From a virus, in the IMG/VR virus record IMGVR_UViG_3300007734_000751, positions 8,556 through 72,555 of that record: a stretch of 64,000 nt of DNA; one strand, 5' to 3'. A program made the translations under genes and the position numbers. The notes under the pieces were generated by a model that worked only from the letters and a program-made list of their open reading frames with translations, searched no databases and had not been told where the DNA came from. Position 1 is the stretch's first letter. Every line of letters starts with the position of its first letter. This document shows, piece after piece, positions 8,154-59,140 of the stretch.

Positions 8154-10057
8154 TGGATGTTCGGCTCCCTGACGGCACAGTCATAAAAAATGTTCCTGAA
8201 GGAACAACCAAAGCGCAGCTTGTAGAAAAGCTGAAAGCTAATGGGTATGACATTGGCGCGCTTGAAGCCAAGCCATCCGAGCCTCAAGAGATCGTTACGA
8301 CGCCGCAAAAGATAGCGGGCTATCTTGGCGAAACGATTGGAAATATCCCCGCGAGCACACTTAATCTCGCGCAAGGCGTTTACGAGACTGCGACGCACCC
8401 ACTTCAGACAGCGGAAGCATTAGGACAGGCTGCGATGAGTCCTGTCCAGACGGCTAAAGCTATTGGTGGATATTTTGGCGAACGCTATGCGTCGCCGTTA
8501 GAGACATTCAAGCAAGATCCTGTCGGCGTTTTATCTGACATATCCGCTATCGCAGGTGGTGTCGGAGCTGGCGCGCGTTTAGCCGGCAAAGGCCCATTAG
8601 CGCAGGGCGCTATGAAATTAGCGCAACAAACCGCACCTTCAAATGTTTTAGCGGGCATGGTGCAGGCTCCTTTTAACGCCGCCGCGCCTACTTACGAGTT
8701 CGCGCGTAACATGATGGCTCCTAAGTATGCAGCCTACATGGCGGCGACTGAGGGCAGAACGCCTGAAATTATCTCGGCGCTTCGCAGCCCACAAGCTCAG
8801 ATTGTTCCTGGCGCTATGCCTACGGCGGCTCAAGCCGCTGCGCCTGTTGGTGCGGCTAAGTTCCAGGCTCTCGGCGCTACAGCCGCCGAGACAATGCCAT
8901 CTGAATATATGCAACGTGCTCAAGAGCAAGGCGCGGCGCGGCTAAAAGCTTTAAGAACTGTAGCTGGATCTGAGCGCACGCTAGAAGCGGCTAAAGAAGG
9001 CCGGTCTAAAGAAGCTGCGTATCTTTACGGAAAAGCAGATAAGATGCTTGTGCCTGAAGATAAGAAATTAGCTGAGTTACTCACACGTCCTTCGATGGAC
9101 AAAGCGCTTGCTCGCGCTGAAGAGTTAGCCGCAGAGCGCGGCCATACCTTCCAGCTTGGCGAGACTAAACCTGCTACGACTGTAGAGTCCGCTATCGTCG
9201 ATGAGTATGGTAACCCGATCAAGCGCACGATTCCTGCGACAACCGCTAAGTATCCTGTTAGCAGCTTGCACGCGCTCAAGATGTCTATGGACGATCTTAT
9301 ACGCAATCCAGAACGCTTTGGCATCGGCGCATCTGAAGCCGCTGCTATAGGTAACACGCGTAAGCAATTAATTAGCTGGATCAAACAAAAATCACCGCTG
9401 TATGAACAAGCGCGCGGACAATTCGCAAAACGTAGCGGCCCGATCAATCAAATGGAGATCGGCCAATATCTTGAAAGCAAATTGCTGGCACCGTTGAGCG
9501 AAGAAGCGCCGCAACGCGCAGGTGTGTTTGCGACGGCTGTTGAGGCTGCACCGCGCACGATCAAACAAGCGCTTGAAGGTGGTGGGCCTCGGTTTGAGAA
9601 ACTGTCTCAGGTTTTAACGCCCGCACAAGTAAAAGCTATTGAGAATATCCAAGCTGACTTAGCGCGCGAGGCGCAAGCAGATCGTATGGCGCGTGTGGCT
9701 AGAGAAGCTGCGCCTGACGCGACTGAAATAACCAAAGGTGTGTTGCCGCGTGCTCCTAACTGGATGAACCGCATCACATCGACCGTCAATAAAATAATGG
9801 ATAAATCGCAGGGCGCGCTTGATCGTAAATATGCGCTTGAGATCGCAACTGAGATGTTGGATCCCGAACAGACTGCAAAGGTTCTTGAAGCCGCTGTGGC
9901 GTATGCGGAAAAGACTAAAAAGACCGCAGAAAAGATAAAAGGCATGGGCGCAGGTGTAAAAGACACTGTGCAGAAACTTGGCCCCGCGATCTCTGGAGCT
10001 GTGACCGTTCAGAACGTGATGCGCCGGAGAGACAACCAGAACGCGATGGCAAGATAA
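8153..10057 (+). CDS. Ejection protein 3 (gp16-like position)
   Basis: Large Ala-rich helical protein closing the tail module; homologue at 45621. Confidence 0.65.
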   Translation: MDVRLPDGTVIKNVPEGTTKAQLVEKLKANGYDIGALEAKPSEPQEIVTTPQKIAGYLGETIGNIPASTLNLAQGVYETATHPLQTAEALGQAAMSPVQTAKAIGGYFGERYASPLETFKQDPVGVLSDISAIAGGVGAGARLAGKGPLAQGAMKLAQQTAPSNVLAGMVQAPFNAAAPTYEFARNMMAPKYAAYMAATEGRTPEIISALRSPQAQIVPGAMPTAAQAAAPVGAAKFQALGATAAETMPSEYMQRAQEQGAARLKALRTVAGSERTLEAAKEGRSKEAAYLYGKADKMLVPEDKKLAELLTRPSMDKALARAEELAAERGHTFQLGETKPATTVESAIVDEYGNPIKRTIPATTAKYPVSSLHALKMSMDDLIRNPERFGIGASEAAAIGNTRKQLISWIKQKSPLYEQARGQFAKRSGPINQMEIGQYLESKLLAPLSEEAPQRAGVFATAVEAAPRTIKQALEGGGPRFEKLSQVLTPAQVKAIENIQADLAREAQADRMARVAREAAPDATEITKGVLPRAPNWMNRITSTVNKIMDKSQGALDRKYALEIATEMLDPEQTAKVLEAAVAYAEKTKKTAEKIKGMGAGVKDTVQKLGPAISGAVTVQNVMRRRDNQNAMAR

Positions 10058-20701: not shown

Positions 20702-20898
20702 AACCCGGTGCTATGCATGCCTTGAAAGATCCGTCACGTCTAACGCCTGCCGAGGAGCGCATATACGCCTACATGAAAGAGGGTTTGACCGCGAAGGAGA
20801 TTGCTGTGAGAATAGGAACTGGAACTGCGGGAGCGATGAACTGCCGCATCAAGGTCATACGAGAAAAGCTTGCTACGCGCCTTATGCCTACTGGTTAG
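20698..20898 (+). CDS. LuxR/GerE-like HTH protein
   Basis: LTPAEERI..GLTAKEIA; ATGA-coupled to the primase stop. Confidence 0.65.
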   Translation: MKPGAMHALKDPSRLTPAEERIYAYMKEGLTAKEIAVRIGTGTAGAMNCRIKVIREKLATRLMPTG

Positions 20899-20960
20899 GG
20901 TTACCGTTTTATGGATGCTTTTCATTTGGTTCTTTATTGAGAACCGAAAGAGGGTAGGTA

Positions 20961-21413
20961 ATGGTTGACGAAGTAAACGCATTGCTCGGCAGGATAGCCA
21001 GGGAGCGCTATTCTAGCAAAGAGGCGCTCAAAGACCTGCCGGAACCATCCTACTTGGATGACCTTACGTTTATGTATCAGCATAACTTTATGCCGCGATA
21101 CAACGCGCTCGCGGCGCAATTGTTCGGGCCTGGGCCATCCTACAGCGACCCCTTAACGAGCCGTGAGCGCTCGCCTGTAGGGTTTATGGGCGACATGCCT
21201 ACACAGGCTACCCCAGCCCAGCCGATGGCCCTGAACGCCTTCGTCTTTAATCCTATGCGCGCCTATCCGCGCTATTACACCGCAACTGAAACCTCTAATG
21301 AAGACGTTAAAGGCCCAAGCAAGTTGATGGAAGGTTTTAGCTATTTAGGCAACGACCGCCCCTGGGGCTTTATGGATATGACCTCGGGGCGCTATCCAGG
21401 CTTCGTCAAATAA
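20961..21413 (+). CDS. Hypothetical Pro/Met-rich protein (moron-like)
   Basis: GAGG RBS; downstream terminator; syntenic non-identical ORF at 58641. Confidence 0.6.
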   Translation: MVDEVNALLGRIARERYSSKEALKDLPEPSYLDDLTFMYQHNFMPRYNALAAQLFGPGPSYSDPLTSRERSPVGFMGDMPTQATPAQPMALNAFVFNPMRAYPRYYTATETSNEDVKGPSKLMEGFSYLGNDRPWGFMDMTSGRYPGFVK

Positions 21414-21445
21414 AAGCCCTCTAGCTATGGGGGCAGCTAGAGGGC
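21409..21445. terminator. Intrinsic terminator hairpin (T-tail on - strand)
   Basis: GCCCTCTAGCT-N8-AGCTAGAGGGC, 11-bp perfect stem. Confidence 0.75.
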
Positions 21446-21483
21446 AGGAGGCTTGCATATAAGGCCAAGGGAGGAGGCCATAG
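21409..21483 (-). ncRNA. Putative ~75-nt anti-SD small RNA with CCUCCUCCC (cuckoo-like) loop
   Basis: TTGTAG-17-TAGGGT promoter at 21517-21489; GGCC-TCCTCCCTT-GGCC hairpin; second CCTCCT; terminator. Confidence 0.5.
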
Positions 21484-21541
21484 GCCGCACCCTAACGCAT
21501 CACGATAAACGCTACAAGACCTAAAACGAAAAGCGTTAAGA

Positions 21542-21727
21542 TCAAAACATCGTATCCAGATACTGGACAATTTCCGCTTCTGTCATGCCTGTCTTTCTAG
21601 TCCATTTTGTCCAGAAACGCCACAGAGGCTTGTTGACATTCTCGCATGGCTCGTCGCGTGGAATGTCGGGAATGGTGCATTGCAGCTCCTCGTATTGCTC
21701 TAGAAAATATTCTTTTATTTTAGACAT
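21542..21727 (-). CDS. Hypothetical early protein
   Basis: GAGG RBS; last gene of the leftward operon. Confidence 0.55.
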   Translation of the reverse strand: MSKIKEYFLEQYEELQCTIPDIPRDEPCENVNKPLWRFWTKWTRKTGMTEAEIVQYLDTMF

Positions 21728-21736
21728 AGCAGCACC

Positions 21737-22015
21737 TCAATGATTGCTGTTACTAGGACAATAAACGCCGATTCTTCGTTTTTCATAGTTAATCCCGCTT
21801 ATGATGGTTGTATGGTCGCGTTTAAAGACGCGCGCTATTTGCGTATAAGTTTTATCGGTTTCTATATGCGCGCGATACATGGCCTTGCGGCGCACTGCGA
21901 TAACGCGCAGCGTGTTGTTATAAGAGATAAGGGTTTCATAGCTTAACCCCGCCGCTTTCGCCTCCTCTTGTATTATTTGCTTTATTGTTTTCATGTGGCC
22001 CCATATTAAAAGCAA
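21737..22015 (-). CDS. DnaA C-terminal (domain IV)-like HTH protein
   Basis: RRKAMY...IARVFKRDHTTIISG; homologue at 59174. Confidence 0.75.
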   Translation of the reverse strand: MLLIWGHMKTIKQIIQEEAKAAGLSYETLISYNNTLRVIAVRRKAMYRAHIETDKTYTQIARVFKRDHTTIISGINYEKRRIGVYCPSNSNH

Positions 22016-22196
22016 AATTTAAAGCGCTCGCTATTGTCGCCAAACCGCGCAAGTCTGCATGCGTTACGTAAAGGCGCATGATCGGCGTTTCTTTTCCATC
22101 ACACTTGTAAATGATAACGCAGCTAGTGTTATCAGTCTTGATTGCTTTAGCTTTCATGCGCCCTGGGTGGTCACAAAATAAATCAAGATGTAGCAT
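21936..22196 (-). CDS. Hypothetical early protein
   Basis: ORF within a tightly packed leftward operon. Confidence 0.5.
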   Translation of the reverse strand: MLHLDLFCDHPGRMKAKAIKTDNTSCVIIYKCDGKETPIMRLYVTHADLRGLATIASALNFAFNMGPHENNKANNTRGGESGGVKL

Positions 22197-22434
22197 TTAA
22201 TTTTTCCTTGTATTTTTTGACCATGCCTTCAAGGTAGCCATTGCGGACTGATAACTCTAAAATCTTGTCCTCCATGTCTTTAACTGTCCCAAACCCCCTT
22301 GCGACATAATTTAATTGTCTTTGAAGGCGTTCAATTTCCTTGTTTGCCTTTTTTAACTCGCGCAACAATAAGATCGGCTTGTTAAGCTCGTTAATCACAT
22401 CATCTATTGGATTAGTTTTTCGTGGCGCGCGCAT
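22183..22434 (-). CDS. Coiled-coil hypothetical protein
   Basis: GAGGGGG RBS; heptad pattern. Confidence 0.55.
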   Translation of the reverse strand: MRAPRKTNPIDDVINELNKPILLLRELKKANKEIERLQRQLNYVARGFGTVKDMEDKILELSVRNGYLEGMVKKYKEKLNATS

Positions 22435-22543
22435 TGATTTCCCCCTCTATTAACTCGCGGCGTGTCTCGTCACCCTCACCCTGTAACATTAGCTCAAGCG
22501 CCGGTGTGGATAGGCGATAAAGCAAACAGCAAAAATCGTACAT
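22412..22543 (-). CDS. 43-aa protein, not in ORF track
   Basis: Hand translation: LYRL...LIEGEI.AR shared with 59860..60000. Confidence 0.55.
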   Translation of the reverse strand: MYDFCCLLYRLSTPALELMLQGEGDETRRELIEGEINARATKN

Positions 22544-23151: not shown

Positions 23152-23358
23152 TTACACCCCATAGGTTTCGATATATTGACGCGCCGCGCGATAGCCCATG
23201 ACGGTAAACGCGTCATTAATTTGATCGATATATTTAAGCTCGGCTTGCTCATTAACGCCGCGCATAGCGTCAGCAGCAGCTCTCGCGTCTTTAACAATAT
23301 ATTCAAGCTCGGCGTCAGTCTTTTTATGATATGGGTGATCTTTTAATGGCTTTTTCAT
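23152..23358 (-). CDS. Hypothetical early protein
   Basis: ATGA-coupled ORF with RBS. Confidence 0.6.
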   Translation of the reverse strand: MKKPLKDHPYHKKTDAELEYIVKDARAAADAMRGVNEQAELKYIDQINDAFTVMGYRAARQYIETYGV

Positions 23359-23582
23359 TTTAACATCCCCTTCAATTCTGCCTTAACGCGCCGCGCGGTA
23401 TCGCCGCGCCATGTCGAGGCGTTACATAAAAAATAGCGAACAATACTTTCGCCGCTATCATAACCATAGGGTTGATTGATATCGTCCAGCGTCGACATAG
23501 CTTGCAGGTATGGTACCGCGCCAAAGTATGGCTTGCGCCAGTCTTGCGCTATCTCGCGCGCTATTGTTGATAGTGTTCTCAT
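23355..23582 (-). CDS. Conserved small phage protein
   Basis: IAREI..DW..PYFGAVPYL...TWRG..AR.VKAELK pattern recalled from other phages. Confidence 0.65.
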   Translation of the reverse strand: MRTLSTIAREIAQDWRKPYFGAVPYLQAMSTLDDINQPYGYDSGESIVRYFLCNASTWRGDTARRVKAELKGMLK

Positions 23583-23851
23583 AATATAACCCCCTCTCTT
23601 AAAGCTTGCGCCATGTCATCTTGCGCCGTGTAAGTAACGCGCCCCCTATGATCTTTTATTGGTGTTGTTTTGTATCGTGTCCCGAACAAGCGCCCGCGCT
23701 CATAGGCCCATTGATCGTTGAGCGTTTTTCCCGCGTCATAATTAAATGGTTTACCTTCACGCGCCTCTTTAACGCCGCGATTGAATAGAGCGCTCCTCAT
23801 TATAATTTTTAACGAAACGGTCTTAGTAGTAACTTGCTGTATGGTAGCCAT
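23579..23851 (-). CDS. Hypothetical early protein
   Basis: Coupled ORF with GGAGG RBS. Confidence 0.6.
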   Translation of the reverse strand: MATIQQVTTKTVSLKIIMRSALFNRGVKEAREGKPFNYDAGKTLNDQWAYERGRLFGTRYKTTPIKDHRGRVTYTAQDDMAQALREGVIL

Positions 23852-24645
23852 TATGCGGCCCTCCCTACGCGGAACCCGTGAAGGTTAATCACGATATCTT
23901 TAGACGATTTACTGCTATTGCCAGCGCATAGGCCGCATTTATCGCAGCTAGTGCGCGCGCCGTTTTCTTTAGCGGCAGGGCAACCAATTTCATTAGATGA
24001 TTTAACGTCTTTAGATTTTTTGGCGCGGAAGGTTCGCCATCCACAAGCGCTAGCAAGTAAATGGTCTGATTCTGATTCGCAGCTAGCCATACATAGCAGC
24101 GAGAAAGCCTGAAAGCGCGGGTCGCGCCATTGGTGGCTATAGCCTGTAATCTTGGCAGCTCTTAACGTCGCGGCGCGCCATATCTGAAAAGGTATTGCGG
24201 CAGGGTCGCCATACGTGCCAAGTCTAAACGCTAGCCCTTCAAATAGCTCCGGCAATATAGCAGGGTCATAGTCTATGCCAGGGCGCGCATAGCGCTTGCG
24301 CTCATATGCGCCGTAAACGCTCACTACTGATTTAGCCACGTCAACGTAGCATTTACCGCCCTTGAAGGGTCGCTGGGGGCAATCTCCACAAATGCTATGA
24401 TCACGCCCGTCTTTAATTGCTGTAAAAGGATTAACATCGGCGCGTATTATGAAAGTCTGAACCATTGCGCCGGTCTTAGCATTGGCGCTATTCGCGATAA
24501 TGCGATTAGCTATCGCCACGATAGGCGCGCCATCGATGGCGCTTGGCCCTTCATATAATATCACGCCGGTAAATTGATTGCGCTTTATCGCTAGGCGCAA
24601 GGCGCTTGCTGTATCAATCATTAGACTACCCTCATATTGAGACAA
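23851..24645 (-). CDS. Cys-rich protein, candidate Fe-S / radical-SAM-like enzyme
   Basis: N.KTG, CGDC...CYV, RLGTYGDP, GYSHQW, CPA...CDKCGLC motifs. Confidence 0.55.
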   Translation of the reverse strand: MSQYEGSLMIDTASALRLAIKRNQFTGVILYEGPSAIDGAPIVAIANRIIANSANAKTGAMVQTFIIRADVNPFTAIKDGRDHSICGDCPQRPFKGGKCYVDVAKSVVSVYGAYERKRYARPGIDYDPAILPELFEGLAFRLGTYGDPAAIPFQIWRAATLRAAKITGYSHQWRDPRFQAFSLLCMASCESESDHLLASACGWRTFRAKKSKDVKSSNEIGCPAAKENGARTSCDKCGLCAGNSSKSSKDIVINLHGFRVGRAA

Positions 24646-25224: not shown

Positions 25225-25285
25225 ATATTAGCAAAGATTTTTTGTTAGTCAATAGCTTTTTTGTTAAAAGCAAAGATTTTTTGTT
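25225..25285 (-). promoter_or_regulatory. Main leftward early promoter with repeated operator-like 16-mer
   Basis: TTGACT-16-TAATAT; GCAAAGATTTTTTGTT at 25231 and 25270. Confidence 0.65.
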
Positions 25286-25289
25286 TATT

Positions 25290-25675
25290 CTGGTCTTGAT
25301 GGTCTTGAATGGTTAAATATATTTTAAAAATGACCATGTTAAACGTGTTGAATTGGCGGGTTTTAGTGTTAAATGGTCATTATGGTCATTATTGTTTAAT
25401 TCTAAGAAAAATTTATATATGTATACAAATAAAGATAGTGTGTCACCATTCTTGGCGCGATTTTTTCCGCGTGACCATTTGACCATAATGACCAAAAGCC
25501 CCTCTTCTTTGCCGCGTTTTCTTCCCCCATGTTGACATATATGTTTACATTCATATACCAGTGTGACCTCCGACTAGTAAACGCGTGACCATAATGACCA
25601 TGAGTTATGTCGACATTTGAATGACAACTTAGTTTATGTAAACATAGTTGACAATCATTTGACTAAACGACCATG
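25290..25675. repeat. Putative replication origin A: TGACCAT/ATGGTCA iterons around an AT-rich core
   Basis: ATGGTCATT x2 (25373, 25382); AT-rich 25390-25437; TGACCA at 25472, 25480, 25489, 25586, 25595 and others. Confidence 0.65.
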
Positions 25676-58642: not shown

Positions 58643-59030
58643 GCCGGACACTCTTAATAGAAACGCTATGGCGGCATTGGCCGACGAAAGCATCTTTGAC
58701 AAGATCAAACGGTTTCAGTCCGACATGCGCGCCATCAACTGGGGCGAGATGCCTGACGAATACGCGCGCGCTATACCAGAAAATCCTAATTATGGCTATC
58801 TGGTTGATACTCAGAATTACATGAGAGAGGCGCTGATGCCCTATTTGGAGCGGTTTGGTCTGGCTATACCTGACACGCGACAAGGTGCGCCAGCGGACTA
58901 TTACAACCCCGTTATGAGGGCTGGCGAAGCGTCGGATTTTTTTACGCCGCCACTTAACTCGCCTAACTTCAGCGTCAATTACATGACAAATGCGCCGCGC
59001 TTGTTTGGTAGGGGCTTGATCGGTAAATAA
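58641..59030 (+). CDS. Hypothetical Pro/Met-rich protein (moron-like)
   Basis: Syntenic with 20961; YNPVMRA resembles FNPMRA; terminator downstream. Confidence 0.55.
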   Translation: MPDTLNRNAMAALADESIFDKIKRFQSDMRAINWGEMPDEYARAIPENPNYGYLVDTQNYMREALMPYLERFGLAIPDTRQGAPADYYNPVMRAGEASDFFTPPLNSPNFSVNYMTNAPRLFGRGLIGK

Positions 59031-59140
59031 AAATAACCCCACGCCGTTAGGCATGGGGCCAAGTCTAGGGGAGGTCAACACGTCCCTCTTAGTAACATAT
59101 GCCTAGGCCATCGTATAGCAGGGCCGGATCGACTAGCTGA
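59029..59140 (-). ncRNA. Putative small RNA with CCUCCCC anti-SD segment and terminator
   Basis: Non-coding gap syntenic with 21409-21483; CCCCATGCC-TAAC-GGCGTGGGG-TTATTTTT terminator. Confidence 0.35.

Follow-up and report, generated by a model that had tools for sequence, protein, structure and literature searches.

Anti-Shine-Dalgarno RNAs in bacteria and a probable phage counterpart

Small RNAs (sRNAs) that display an anti-Shine-Dalgarno (anti-SD) sequence, such as those of the cuckoo/CcsR and alphaR8 families, are regulators of stress responses and metabolism in bacteria. sRNAs derived from a 3′ untranslated region (3′ UTR) that share the terminator of their mRNA are a known class, as are sRNAs started from promoters inside an upstream open reading frame (ORF). 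To our knowledge, few regulatory RNAs of phages have been described, and those mostly from temperate phages of enteric bacteria. Here we analyzed an element of related design in a 64,000-nucleotide (nt) stretch of an uncultured virus (IMG/VR record IMGVR_UViG_3300007734_000751, positions 8,556 to 72,555; this whole stretch is referred to as the window), in which the minus strand at 21408-21517 carries an anti-SD hairpin followed by a terminator. Our favored interpretation, to which we assign a probability of about one half, is that the element is a riboregulator produced from the 3′ end of a phage operon and pairing with G-rich ribosome-binding sites.

The closest described systems are outlined here from the available portions of the respective reports. 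The cuckoo RNAs of the Rhizobiales and Rhodobacterales have two to four hairpins side by side, all of which carry CCUCCUCCC in the loop, and the settings of the cuckoo matcher are hairpins of 24–50 nt and loops of 9–27 nt (PMC4615179). CcsR1-4, which share this motif, arise by cleavage of the 3′ UTR of an mRNA for a small protein (PMC8034643). The alphaR8 sRNAs consist of a weak hairpin, the single-stranded 10-mer UUUCCUCCCU and a terminator (PMC12559287). Regulatory RNAs of phages and prophages include P1/P7 c4, StxS and AsxR/AgvB (PMC12197685; PMC12559287).

Anatomy of the element and its likeness to the cuckoo RNAs

The original prediction for this site was a phage-encoded anti-SD sRNA of the cuckoo type with its own promoter. 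All the motifs that it listed were present on the minus strand within 21408-21517, with the correction that the terminator stem is 12 base pairs (bp) rather than 11. The features of the site are as follows:

21542..21727, minus strand: 61-amino-acid (61-aa) ORF, last full-size gene of the leftward operon (ORF list)
21492..21545, minus strand: hydrophobic micro-ORF of 17 codons, (M)ILTLFVLGLVAFIVMR (sequence, relatives)
21489..21517, minus strand: promoter-like hexamers TTGTAG (21517-21512) and TAGGGT (21494-21489) with a 17-nt spacer (sequence)
21463..21479, minus strand: hairpin of GGCC (21479-21476), loop UCCUCCCUU (21475-21467) and GGCC (21466-21463) (fold)
21446..21451, minus strand: second CCUCCU, unpaired, directly 5′ of the terminator (sequence)
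21408..21445, minus strand: intrinsic terminator of the leftward operon, stem-loop 21445-21416 plus tail (terminator scan)
20961..21413, plus strand: convergent 150-aa ORF, its stop in the terminator tail, outside the element (ORF list)

The element ends a leftward operon of ~3.8 kb with about a dozen small genes, and it lies between two converging gene ends, the stop codon of the 150-aa ORF at 21413 (plus strand) and that of the 61-aa ORF at 21542 (minus strand). The anti-SD motif CCUCCUCCC occupies 21477-21469 (minus strand), with two of its C residues in the hairpin stem, and the entire 72.5-kb record has a single copy of CCTCCTCCC. The terminator, whose stem starts 46 nt after the stop codon of the micro-ORF, has 12 pairs (seven of them G-C), a 6-nt loop and the tail TTTTATTT at 21415-21408 (U tail UUUUAUUU); its T-run is on the minus strand only, with none on the plus strand. 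An 86-nt RNA was predicted to fold at -33 kcal/mol (z = -3.4), its 9-nt loop containing the motif. The convergent 150-aa ORF had no match in Pfam- and PHROG-type family scans and was swapped for other DNA in six relatives (L004, L005, L008, L009, L010, and L019).

The complementary AGGAGG motifs lie on the plus strand at 21446-21451 and 21472-21477, and we agree with the original prediction that they have no properly spaced start codon, as none that was usable was found in the window. One group of relatives has an ATG 2 nt after GGAGG, as judged by eye, which opens a frame of 14–17 codons that is present in neither the window nor the other relatives. A plus-strand ORF behind the AGGAGG motifs was rejected, as it was not conserved among relatives. 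The further suggestion that AGGAGG sites form a special class of targets found no support in their number, since AGGAGG occurs 15 times in the window versus 14.6 expected.

The likeness to the cuckoo RNAs (CcsR1-4 / RSs0680, ar14 / NfeR1; RF02344) lies in the exact CCUCCUCCC in a hairpin loop followed by a terminator, and in a presumed pairing with ribosome-binding sites, by analogy. The element also shares with CcsR1-4, as described in the available text, a position in the 3′ UTR of a gene for a small protein (PMC8034643). The window differs from the cuckoo RNAs in having one motif hairpin instead of two to four, with a second tract that is 6 nt long, unpaired and absent in some relatives. 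The hairpin itself is 17 nt long (4 bp plus a 9-nt loop), or ~23 nt at most with flanking pairs, so that its loop length fits the cuckoo range but its overall length does not, and its stem includes two bases of the motif. In addition, the upstream 61-aa protein had no DUF1127 match and the setting is a phage. The RF02344 model scored 16.0 bits against a gathering threshold of 58.8, with an E-value of 0.72 for the 351 nt searched; 35 positions of the model, those of the second or middle hairpin, were deleted. Membership of the cuckoo/CcsR/ar14 family, as originally proposed, was therefore rejected. No Rfam family matched anywhere in the window at its gathering threshold.

Conservation of the tract and terminator in relatives

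Two exact-word scans recovered the same 15 homologous viral contigs, with the 17-mer scan adding four unrelated loci. Relatives were also gathered by searches with the 61-aa protein, so that their choice was independent of the element. The protein search of metagenome contigs gave 19 loci, of which 16 were close (one of these without downstream sequence), and that of viral contigs gave 37 loci, namely the 15 already known and 22 distant relatives. A search of viral contigs with the degenerate pattern CCTCCCTTRGCC..TGCAA gave 34 loci (the 15 known and 19 in unrelated contexts) and no new relatives.

A lack of conservation in relatives had been named beforehand as grounds for refuting the original prediction; conservation was found among both close and distant relatives. 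Of the 15 close metagenome loci with sequence downstream, 14 had the identical hairpin. The fifteenth (L033) has a GGCU...AGCC stem, that is, a compensatory change from C-G to U-A, around a CCUCCC loop with the same UGCAA. L033 has different surrounding bases but also keeps the terminator, in which a T-A pair is exchanged for G-C so that pairing is maintained, and the terminator changes seen in relatives generally (A-to-G and T-A to G-C) preserve pairing. The distant relatives, at 45–53% protein identity, have no micro-ORF and a longer C-terminus. In all 22 of them YCUCCC follows the stop codon and precedes an intrinsic terminator, the C-rich tract taking the form UUUUCUCCCC, UUUCCUCCCU, CCUCCCCC or CUCCUCCC. 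On the sense strand of these 22 loci, 22 of the 28 occurrences of YCUCCC were in the 3′ tails, which represent 1.24 kb of 64.4 kb (1.9%) and comprise 16 unique sequences of few sequence types. The tract was kept on the coding strand just before the terminator while the flanks, terminator loops and C-terminal coding arrangement changed. The exact CCUCCUCCC was limited to the close clade, with CCUCCC in L033 and CCUCCC or UCUCCCC in the distant relatives, in which the conserved tract occupies the position of the second CCUCCU of the window.

The record contains a second, related genome whose counterpart of the element has the same layout of a C-rich tract and then a terminator:

59027..59074, minus strand: second-genome counterpart CCUCCCCUAGACUU, then terminator CCCCAUGCC-UAAC-GGCGUGGGG-UUAUUUUU (sequence)

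When the window clade was used to build a covariance model, this scored L033 at 40.9 bits (E 3e-12), L081 at 21.7 bits (E 2e-5) and L063 at 19.7 bits (E 1e-4), all of these E-values being rough, and the window-clade model R1 gave the second-genome counterpart 8.1 bits, which was not significant. From these comparisons, the deeply conserved unit is a CCUCCC-like tract plus the terminator.

Mean pairwise identity over 24 unique protein-anchored close sequences was as follows for each segment:

61-aa gene: 0.889
Micro-ORF codons 2-10: 0.899
TTGTAG..TAGGGT (29 nt): 0.978
Spacer plus hairpin: 0.868
Hairpin to terminator: 0.790
Terminator: 0.990
Next 100 nt beyond the terminator tail: 0.460, the sequence differing between relatives

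These values bear on the explanation that the site is a plain operon terminator and spacer, with a C-rich tract that is non-regulatory and was kept by descent or by aiding termination or 3′-end stability. The terminator is indeed the strongest and best conserved part, the pairs of the small hairpin are invariant within the close clade, and the relatives share ancestry, so that the repeated presence of the tract among so few tail types is not independent. However, the tract persisted through the changes around it, YCUCCC was nearly unique per distant locus on the sense strand, and the hairpin stem of L033 had changed in a compensatory manner. We therefore consider a plain terminator unlikely. 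Selection on an RNA feature is likely because all the relatives found via the 61-aa protein keep a C-rich anti-SD tract before the terminator.

The swapping of sequence beyond the terminator between relatives, and a gene, two genes upstream, for a small protein with a DnaA C-terminal helix-turn-helix, would also fit a site that acts as DNA instead of RNA, for protein binding, replication or recombination at a mosaic joint. This we regard as very improbable. The conserved 11-mer of the island over the hexamers was not repeated (17 matches with <=2 mismatches versus 18.9 expected), no repeats involve the site, there is no tRNA in the window and no integrase among the large ORFs, and the tract is always on the coding strand just before the terminator. 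An attP site or a copy of a host gene was rejected as well, as the element pattern had 0 matches in a set of one genome per prokaryote species and the window has no tRNA and no integrase among its large ORFs.

Two viral contigs unrelated to the above (L097:6320-6365 and L101) carry CCUCCCUU directly before a terminator GGCCCCGG-UGCAAU-GCCGGGGCC-UUUUUU, which by its sequence looks to be another instance of the same design.

The micro-ORF and the proposed promoter

The micro-ORF was absent from every ORF list. It opens at a TTG whose bases overlap the TGA that ends the 61-aa ORF (TTTTGAT), which places it in the -1 frame relative to that gene, and its TAG stop codon is at 21494-21492. Length and frame were kept in 22/22 unique relatives, with TAG as the stop codon in 18 of these sequences and TAA in four, and the variable sites by codon position were 5/4/13 over 16 codons, with conservative replacements. 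In the diverged L033 the micro-ORF is still 17 hydrophobic codons, with many synonymous changes. Based on the invariant length, the codon-position pattern, the conservative replacements and the synonymous changes in L033, the pattern of substitution identifies the micro-ORF as a real coding sequence. Candidate routes for its production are re-initiation and fusion by frameshifting. The coding status of the micro-ORF means that the proposed promoter sits within a coding sequence, its -10 hexamer containing the stop codon.

If the element were a free-standing sRNA gene, the sigma-70-type sequence TTGTAG-17-TAGGGT at the end of the micro-ORF would start an RNA of ~75 nt that ends at the terminator. 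The hexamers do have a 17-nt spacing, the -10 hexamer keeps T1, A2 and T6, and the TAG-to-TAA change in four sequences preserves stop codon and -10 hexamer alike. The 29 nt over the hexamers were also more conserved than the neighboring coding DNA (0.978 versus 0.889 and 0.899), and this conserved island suggests some constraint beyond coding, which an internal promoter, a processing site or a structure would fit. However, the hexamers match the consensus at only 6 of 12 positions, and a sigma-70 promoter scan of 20800-22200 listed no promoter. The -35 hexamer is TTGTGG in L030 and L041, and both hexamers are lost in L033 (CTGTCG and TAAGGC), yet its hairpin, terminator and micro-ORF are kept. 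The extra conservation over the hexamers can be explained equally by an RNA processing site, by structure, or by linkage to the invariant tail. These findings led us to view a dedicated promoter, and a free-standing gene with it, as distinctly unlikely. What was retained of the conserved anti-SD sRNA that had been predicted was a conserved RNA-level element that displays an anti-SD tract by a terminator.

Proposed mechanism and candidate targets

We propose that the tail of the ~3.8-kb leftward operon, comprising the 61-aa gene, the overlapping micro-ORF, the CCUCCUCCC hairpin, the unpaired CCUCCU and the strong terminator, would give rise to a riboregulator that corresponds to the 3′ end of the operon mRNA and that either remains once the transcript has been processed or has its start within the micro-ORF. 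Such an RNA would accumulate as a stable small RNA, and its C-rich tract would serve as an anti-SD seed that pairs with G-rich ribosome-binding sites and lowers translation. Candidate targets would be the phage’s own leftward-operon genes that have GGGAGGG or GAGGGGG sites, or host mRNAs.

Duplexes of the loop with start sites were scored for 356 candidate ORF starts, and three of the best four were leftward-operon genes (23579-23851, 23355-23582, and 22183-22434), all three of which carry GGGAGGG or GAGGGGG sites. We consider these genes a lead that falls short of proof, since an anti-SD sequence will pair with any strong site.

G-rich ribosome-binding sites of this kind (GAGGGGG, GGGAGGG) are unusual, and those of the leftward-operon genes are at 22434-22455, 23582-23605 and 23851-23875 (minus strand). 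In distant relatives GGGGG precedes the homologous gene, and the same bases encode the end of the upstream protein.

Several of our results weigh against a riboregulator that acts through this loop. No covariation, which had been suggested as a check, was detected in the close clade (0 of 20 predicted pairs), where all pairs were invariant, and the structural support comes from one diverged sequence (L033) and the terminator variants. The exposure of the motif that had been predicted was apparent in the 86-nt RNA. Once the stop-codon region UAGGG was included, however, its mean unpaired probability was 0.46–0.61 in most sequences, and in three variants it was 0.29–0.32, the upstream AGGAG pairing with the loop motif in the minimum-energy fold; the corresponding value for L033 was 1.00. 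The second CCUCCU is a further possible partner of UAGGG, as is CCCUA in the variants that carry it instead. The distant tracts (UCUCCCC) differ from CCUCCUCCC, with only CCUCCC-like content being deeply conserved, and the second CCUCCU is dispensable in the close clade, because in six close relatives it is either deleted (L005 and L007) or CC-CUA instead (L009, L019, L034, and L037). No extended target of the loop was found in the window except a site with two mismatches, a ribosome-binding site at 23590-23600 that belongs to this operon; matches to the 11-nt complement of the loop numbered three versus 8.7 expected, and the complementarity to ribosome-binding sites is generic.

Evidence from RNA libraries was also considered. 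The stretch or part of it was contained in 21 listed runs, mostly of freshwater, river, lake and estuary metagenomes, and two studies provided RNA-library contigs covering the stretch or one of its relatives. These contigs are a weak hint of expression, as they show no ends, strand or level and may include DNA, and the parts that they leave uncovered are uninformative.

One metatranscriptome run (X18) yielded a 188-nt contig over 21462-21526 from a more distant relative, with a depth of 183, neighboring contigs having depths of 15–76. The micro-ORF and hairpin are kept in this contig, and a different sequence follows UGCAAGCC.

In the tails of three distant relatives (L072 (307-340), L076, and L078), there is an additional hairpin segment, CAAUGGCGCACCCC, whose complementarity to GGGGUGCGCUAAUG, the gene's own ribosome-binding site and start codon, spans 14 nt. 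The duplex energies were -25.3 and -23.2 kcal/mol, among the best 0.2% and 2% of locus windows, and in the L073 type GGGGGUAAAAUG is opposite CGUUUUCUCCCC, a pairing found by eye. These pairings would be expected if the tail acted in cis, with the C-rich tract folding onto a ribosome-binding site in the same operon mRNA, for example that of its own 61-aa gene. However, the own start region ranked at 7%-88% in the other 15 scored loci (L067 had no usable segment) and at 21%-42% in the window clade. Pairing of the tail with its own start was thus an outlier only in L072 and L076 and is not general, and we consider a role in cis to be quite improbable. The own-start pairing test had no power when the terminator was included.

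Comparison with alphaR8 and other RNA families

Turning back to the riboregulator that we favor, the design of the element resembles that of the alphaR8 RNAs (MmgR, SisA-D; suhB RF00519), which are outlined in the available text as a weak hairpin, a single-stranded C-rich anti-SD tract and a terminator, and the window has a Rho-independent terminator (12-bp stem, U tail) as these RNAs do. The alphaR8 10-mer UUUCCUCCCU was not found in the window, which has CCUCCU in its place; it was exact in L081 and had the form UUUCCUCCCC in L076 and L084. In L081, L084 and the second genome, UUUCCUCCCU or CCUCCCCUAGACUU is by the terminator, near the family consensus GUUUcCUCCCUAgACUU. Unlike the alphaR8 RNAs, the window element is behind a coding gene and is not known to be a gene in its own right. 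A search of window positions 21300-21650 with the suhB model gave no match at E <= 10, and L084, L081 and the second-genome counterpart had RF00519 scores of 22.6, 17.6 and 18.7 bits, respectively, versus a gathering threshold of 41. Membership of the window element in the alphaR8 family was rejected on this basis.

Similar likeness of type was apparent for the Betaproteobacteria toxic sRNA (RF02278), anti-hemB (RF02837) and NmsRb (RF02877), which also have a CU-rich anti-SD stretch by a terminator. The second-genome site and L033 scored 13–22 bits with these models versus gathering thresholds of 49.5–52, with the Betaproteobacteria toxic sRNA giving the second-genome counterpart a sub-threshold 19.2 bits (gathering 50), and the likeness is not one of family. 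The element also has features in common with 3′-UTR-derived sRNAs, as it shares the mRNA 3′ end and terminator, has a conserved seed tract upstream of the terminator of the parental mRNA, and is in a tail that is more conserved than its surroundings. By analogy, the element may work like the cuckoo and alphaR8 families and belongs to neither. It has in common with P1/P7 c4, StxS and AsxR/AgvB that these are short phage-encoded RNAs, of which c4 blocks a ribosome-binding region from its loops. In contrast to the element, those RNAs have specific targets or are sponges, and the available portions of the sources describe none as a generic anti-SD operon-end RNA of a virulent-type podovirus.

Operon, neighboring genes and host

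The record consists of two related but distinct podovirus genomes of ~37.4 kb each, joined head to tail. Positions 1-26.9 kb and 37.6-64 kb of the window have 66–87% nucleotide identity and share gene order, and the close relatives of the record are 37–38.6 kb; the record is probably an assembly join of two strains. Window genes include those for a P22-type portal, a family A DNA polymerase, a primase and an SNF2 helicase, and the phage is a P22-portal-type podovirus of virulent type. Two further features of the leftward operon are:

25225..25252, minus strand: candidate promoter of the leftward operon, TTGACT-16-TAATAT with extended TG (consensus scan only, 9/12 positions)
21737-22015, minus strand: 92-aa protein made up almost entirely of a DnaA C-terminal helix-turn-helix domain (Pfam PF08299, E 1e-11)

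The leftward operon probably begins near 25252-25225, judging by the promoter consensus. In the region 25225-25601, TGGTCATTATGGTCA / TGACCATAATGACCA form perfect inverted repeats and AGATTTTTTGTTA occurs three times at a spacing of ~20 nt. This is likely a control region, the repeats of which look like operator sites.

The gene for the 92-aa protein is directly upstream of the 61-aa gene. The 61-aa protein had 93% mean column identity over 12 close sequences and 45–56% identity in the distant relatives. It had no Pfam or PHROG family, and tblastn with the window protein and a distant relative as queries found no homologue in GenBank phages. Its AlphaFold2 (AF2) model had four helices with a pLDDT (per-residue confidence) of 78.9 and no fold match in the PDB at E <= 0.001, which suggests a small helical protein.

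The original prediction had also taken the cuckoo-type loop to hint at an alphaproteobacterial host, a suggestion not borne out by the nearest records. These were uncultured phages, followed by cultured phages that infect Rhodoferax, Vibrio and Shewanella. Phage DSL-LC05 is metagenome-assembled and, in the available text, its host is only predicted (PMC10611076). No match to the element pattern or the 61-aa protein profile was found in one genome per prokaryote species. Given the alphaR8-like tails of some relatives, an alphaproteobacterial host is possible.

Possible significance and alphaR8 sequences in viral contigs

We speculate that a family of uncultured freshwater podoviruses produces, at the end of its small-gene operon, an RNA that mimics the 3′ end of 16S rRNA, titrates G-rich ribosome-binding sites and times the shut-off of early genes of the phage itself or of host translation, and that phages may often carry alphaR8-type anti-SD sRNAs. 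As a whole this proposal is tentative, and we would sooner expect it to fail than to hold. If it is correct, a conserved anti-SD operon-end module of a virulent-type phage family would be an added way to tune translation, and would connect the RNAs of phages with an sRNA design that is widespread in bacteria. Our literature search found no report of phage-borne cuckoo or alphaR8 RNAs, and the available portion of a 2025 review of phage sRNAs mentions none (PMC12197685).

The presence of alphaR8 genes in many viral contigs makes the idea testable beyond one uncultured phage. The alphaR8 core 16-mer TTTCCTCCCTAGACTT was found in at least 118 viral contigs (L104-L221), and the matches listed had 101 distinct contexts, 85 of which have a terminator-like hairpin directly after the core. 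When 20 of the viral loci with the core were sampled, 13 passed the RF00519 threshold, and four of the ten flanking proteins that were scanned matched phage families. Among these copies, one (L147:3148-3224) is beside a gene for the terminase small subunit and another (L117:4078-4158) is preceded by an antiterminator gene.

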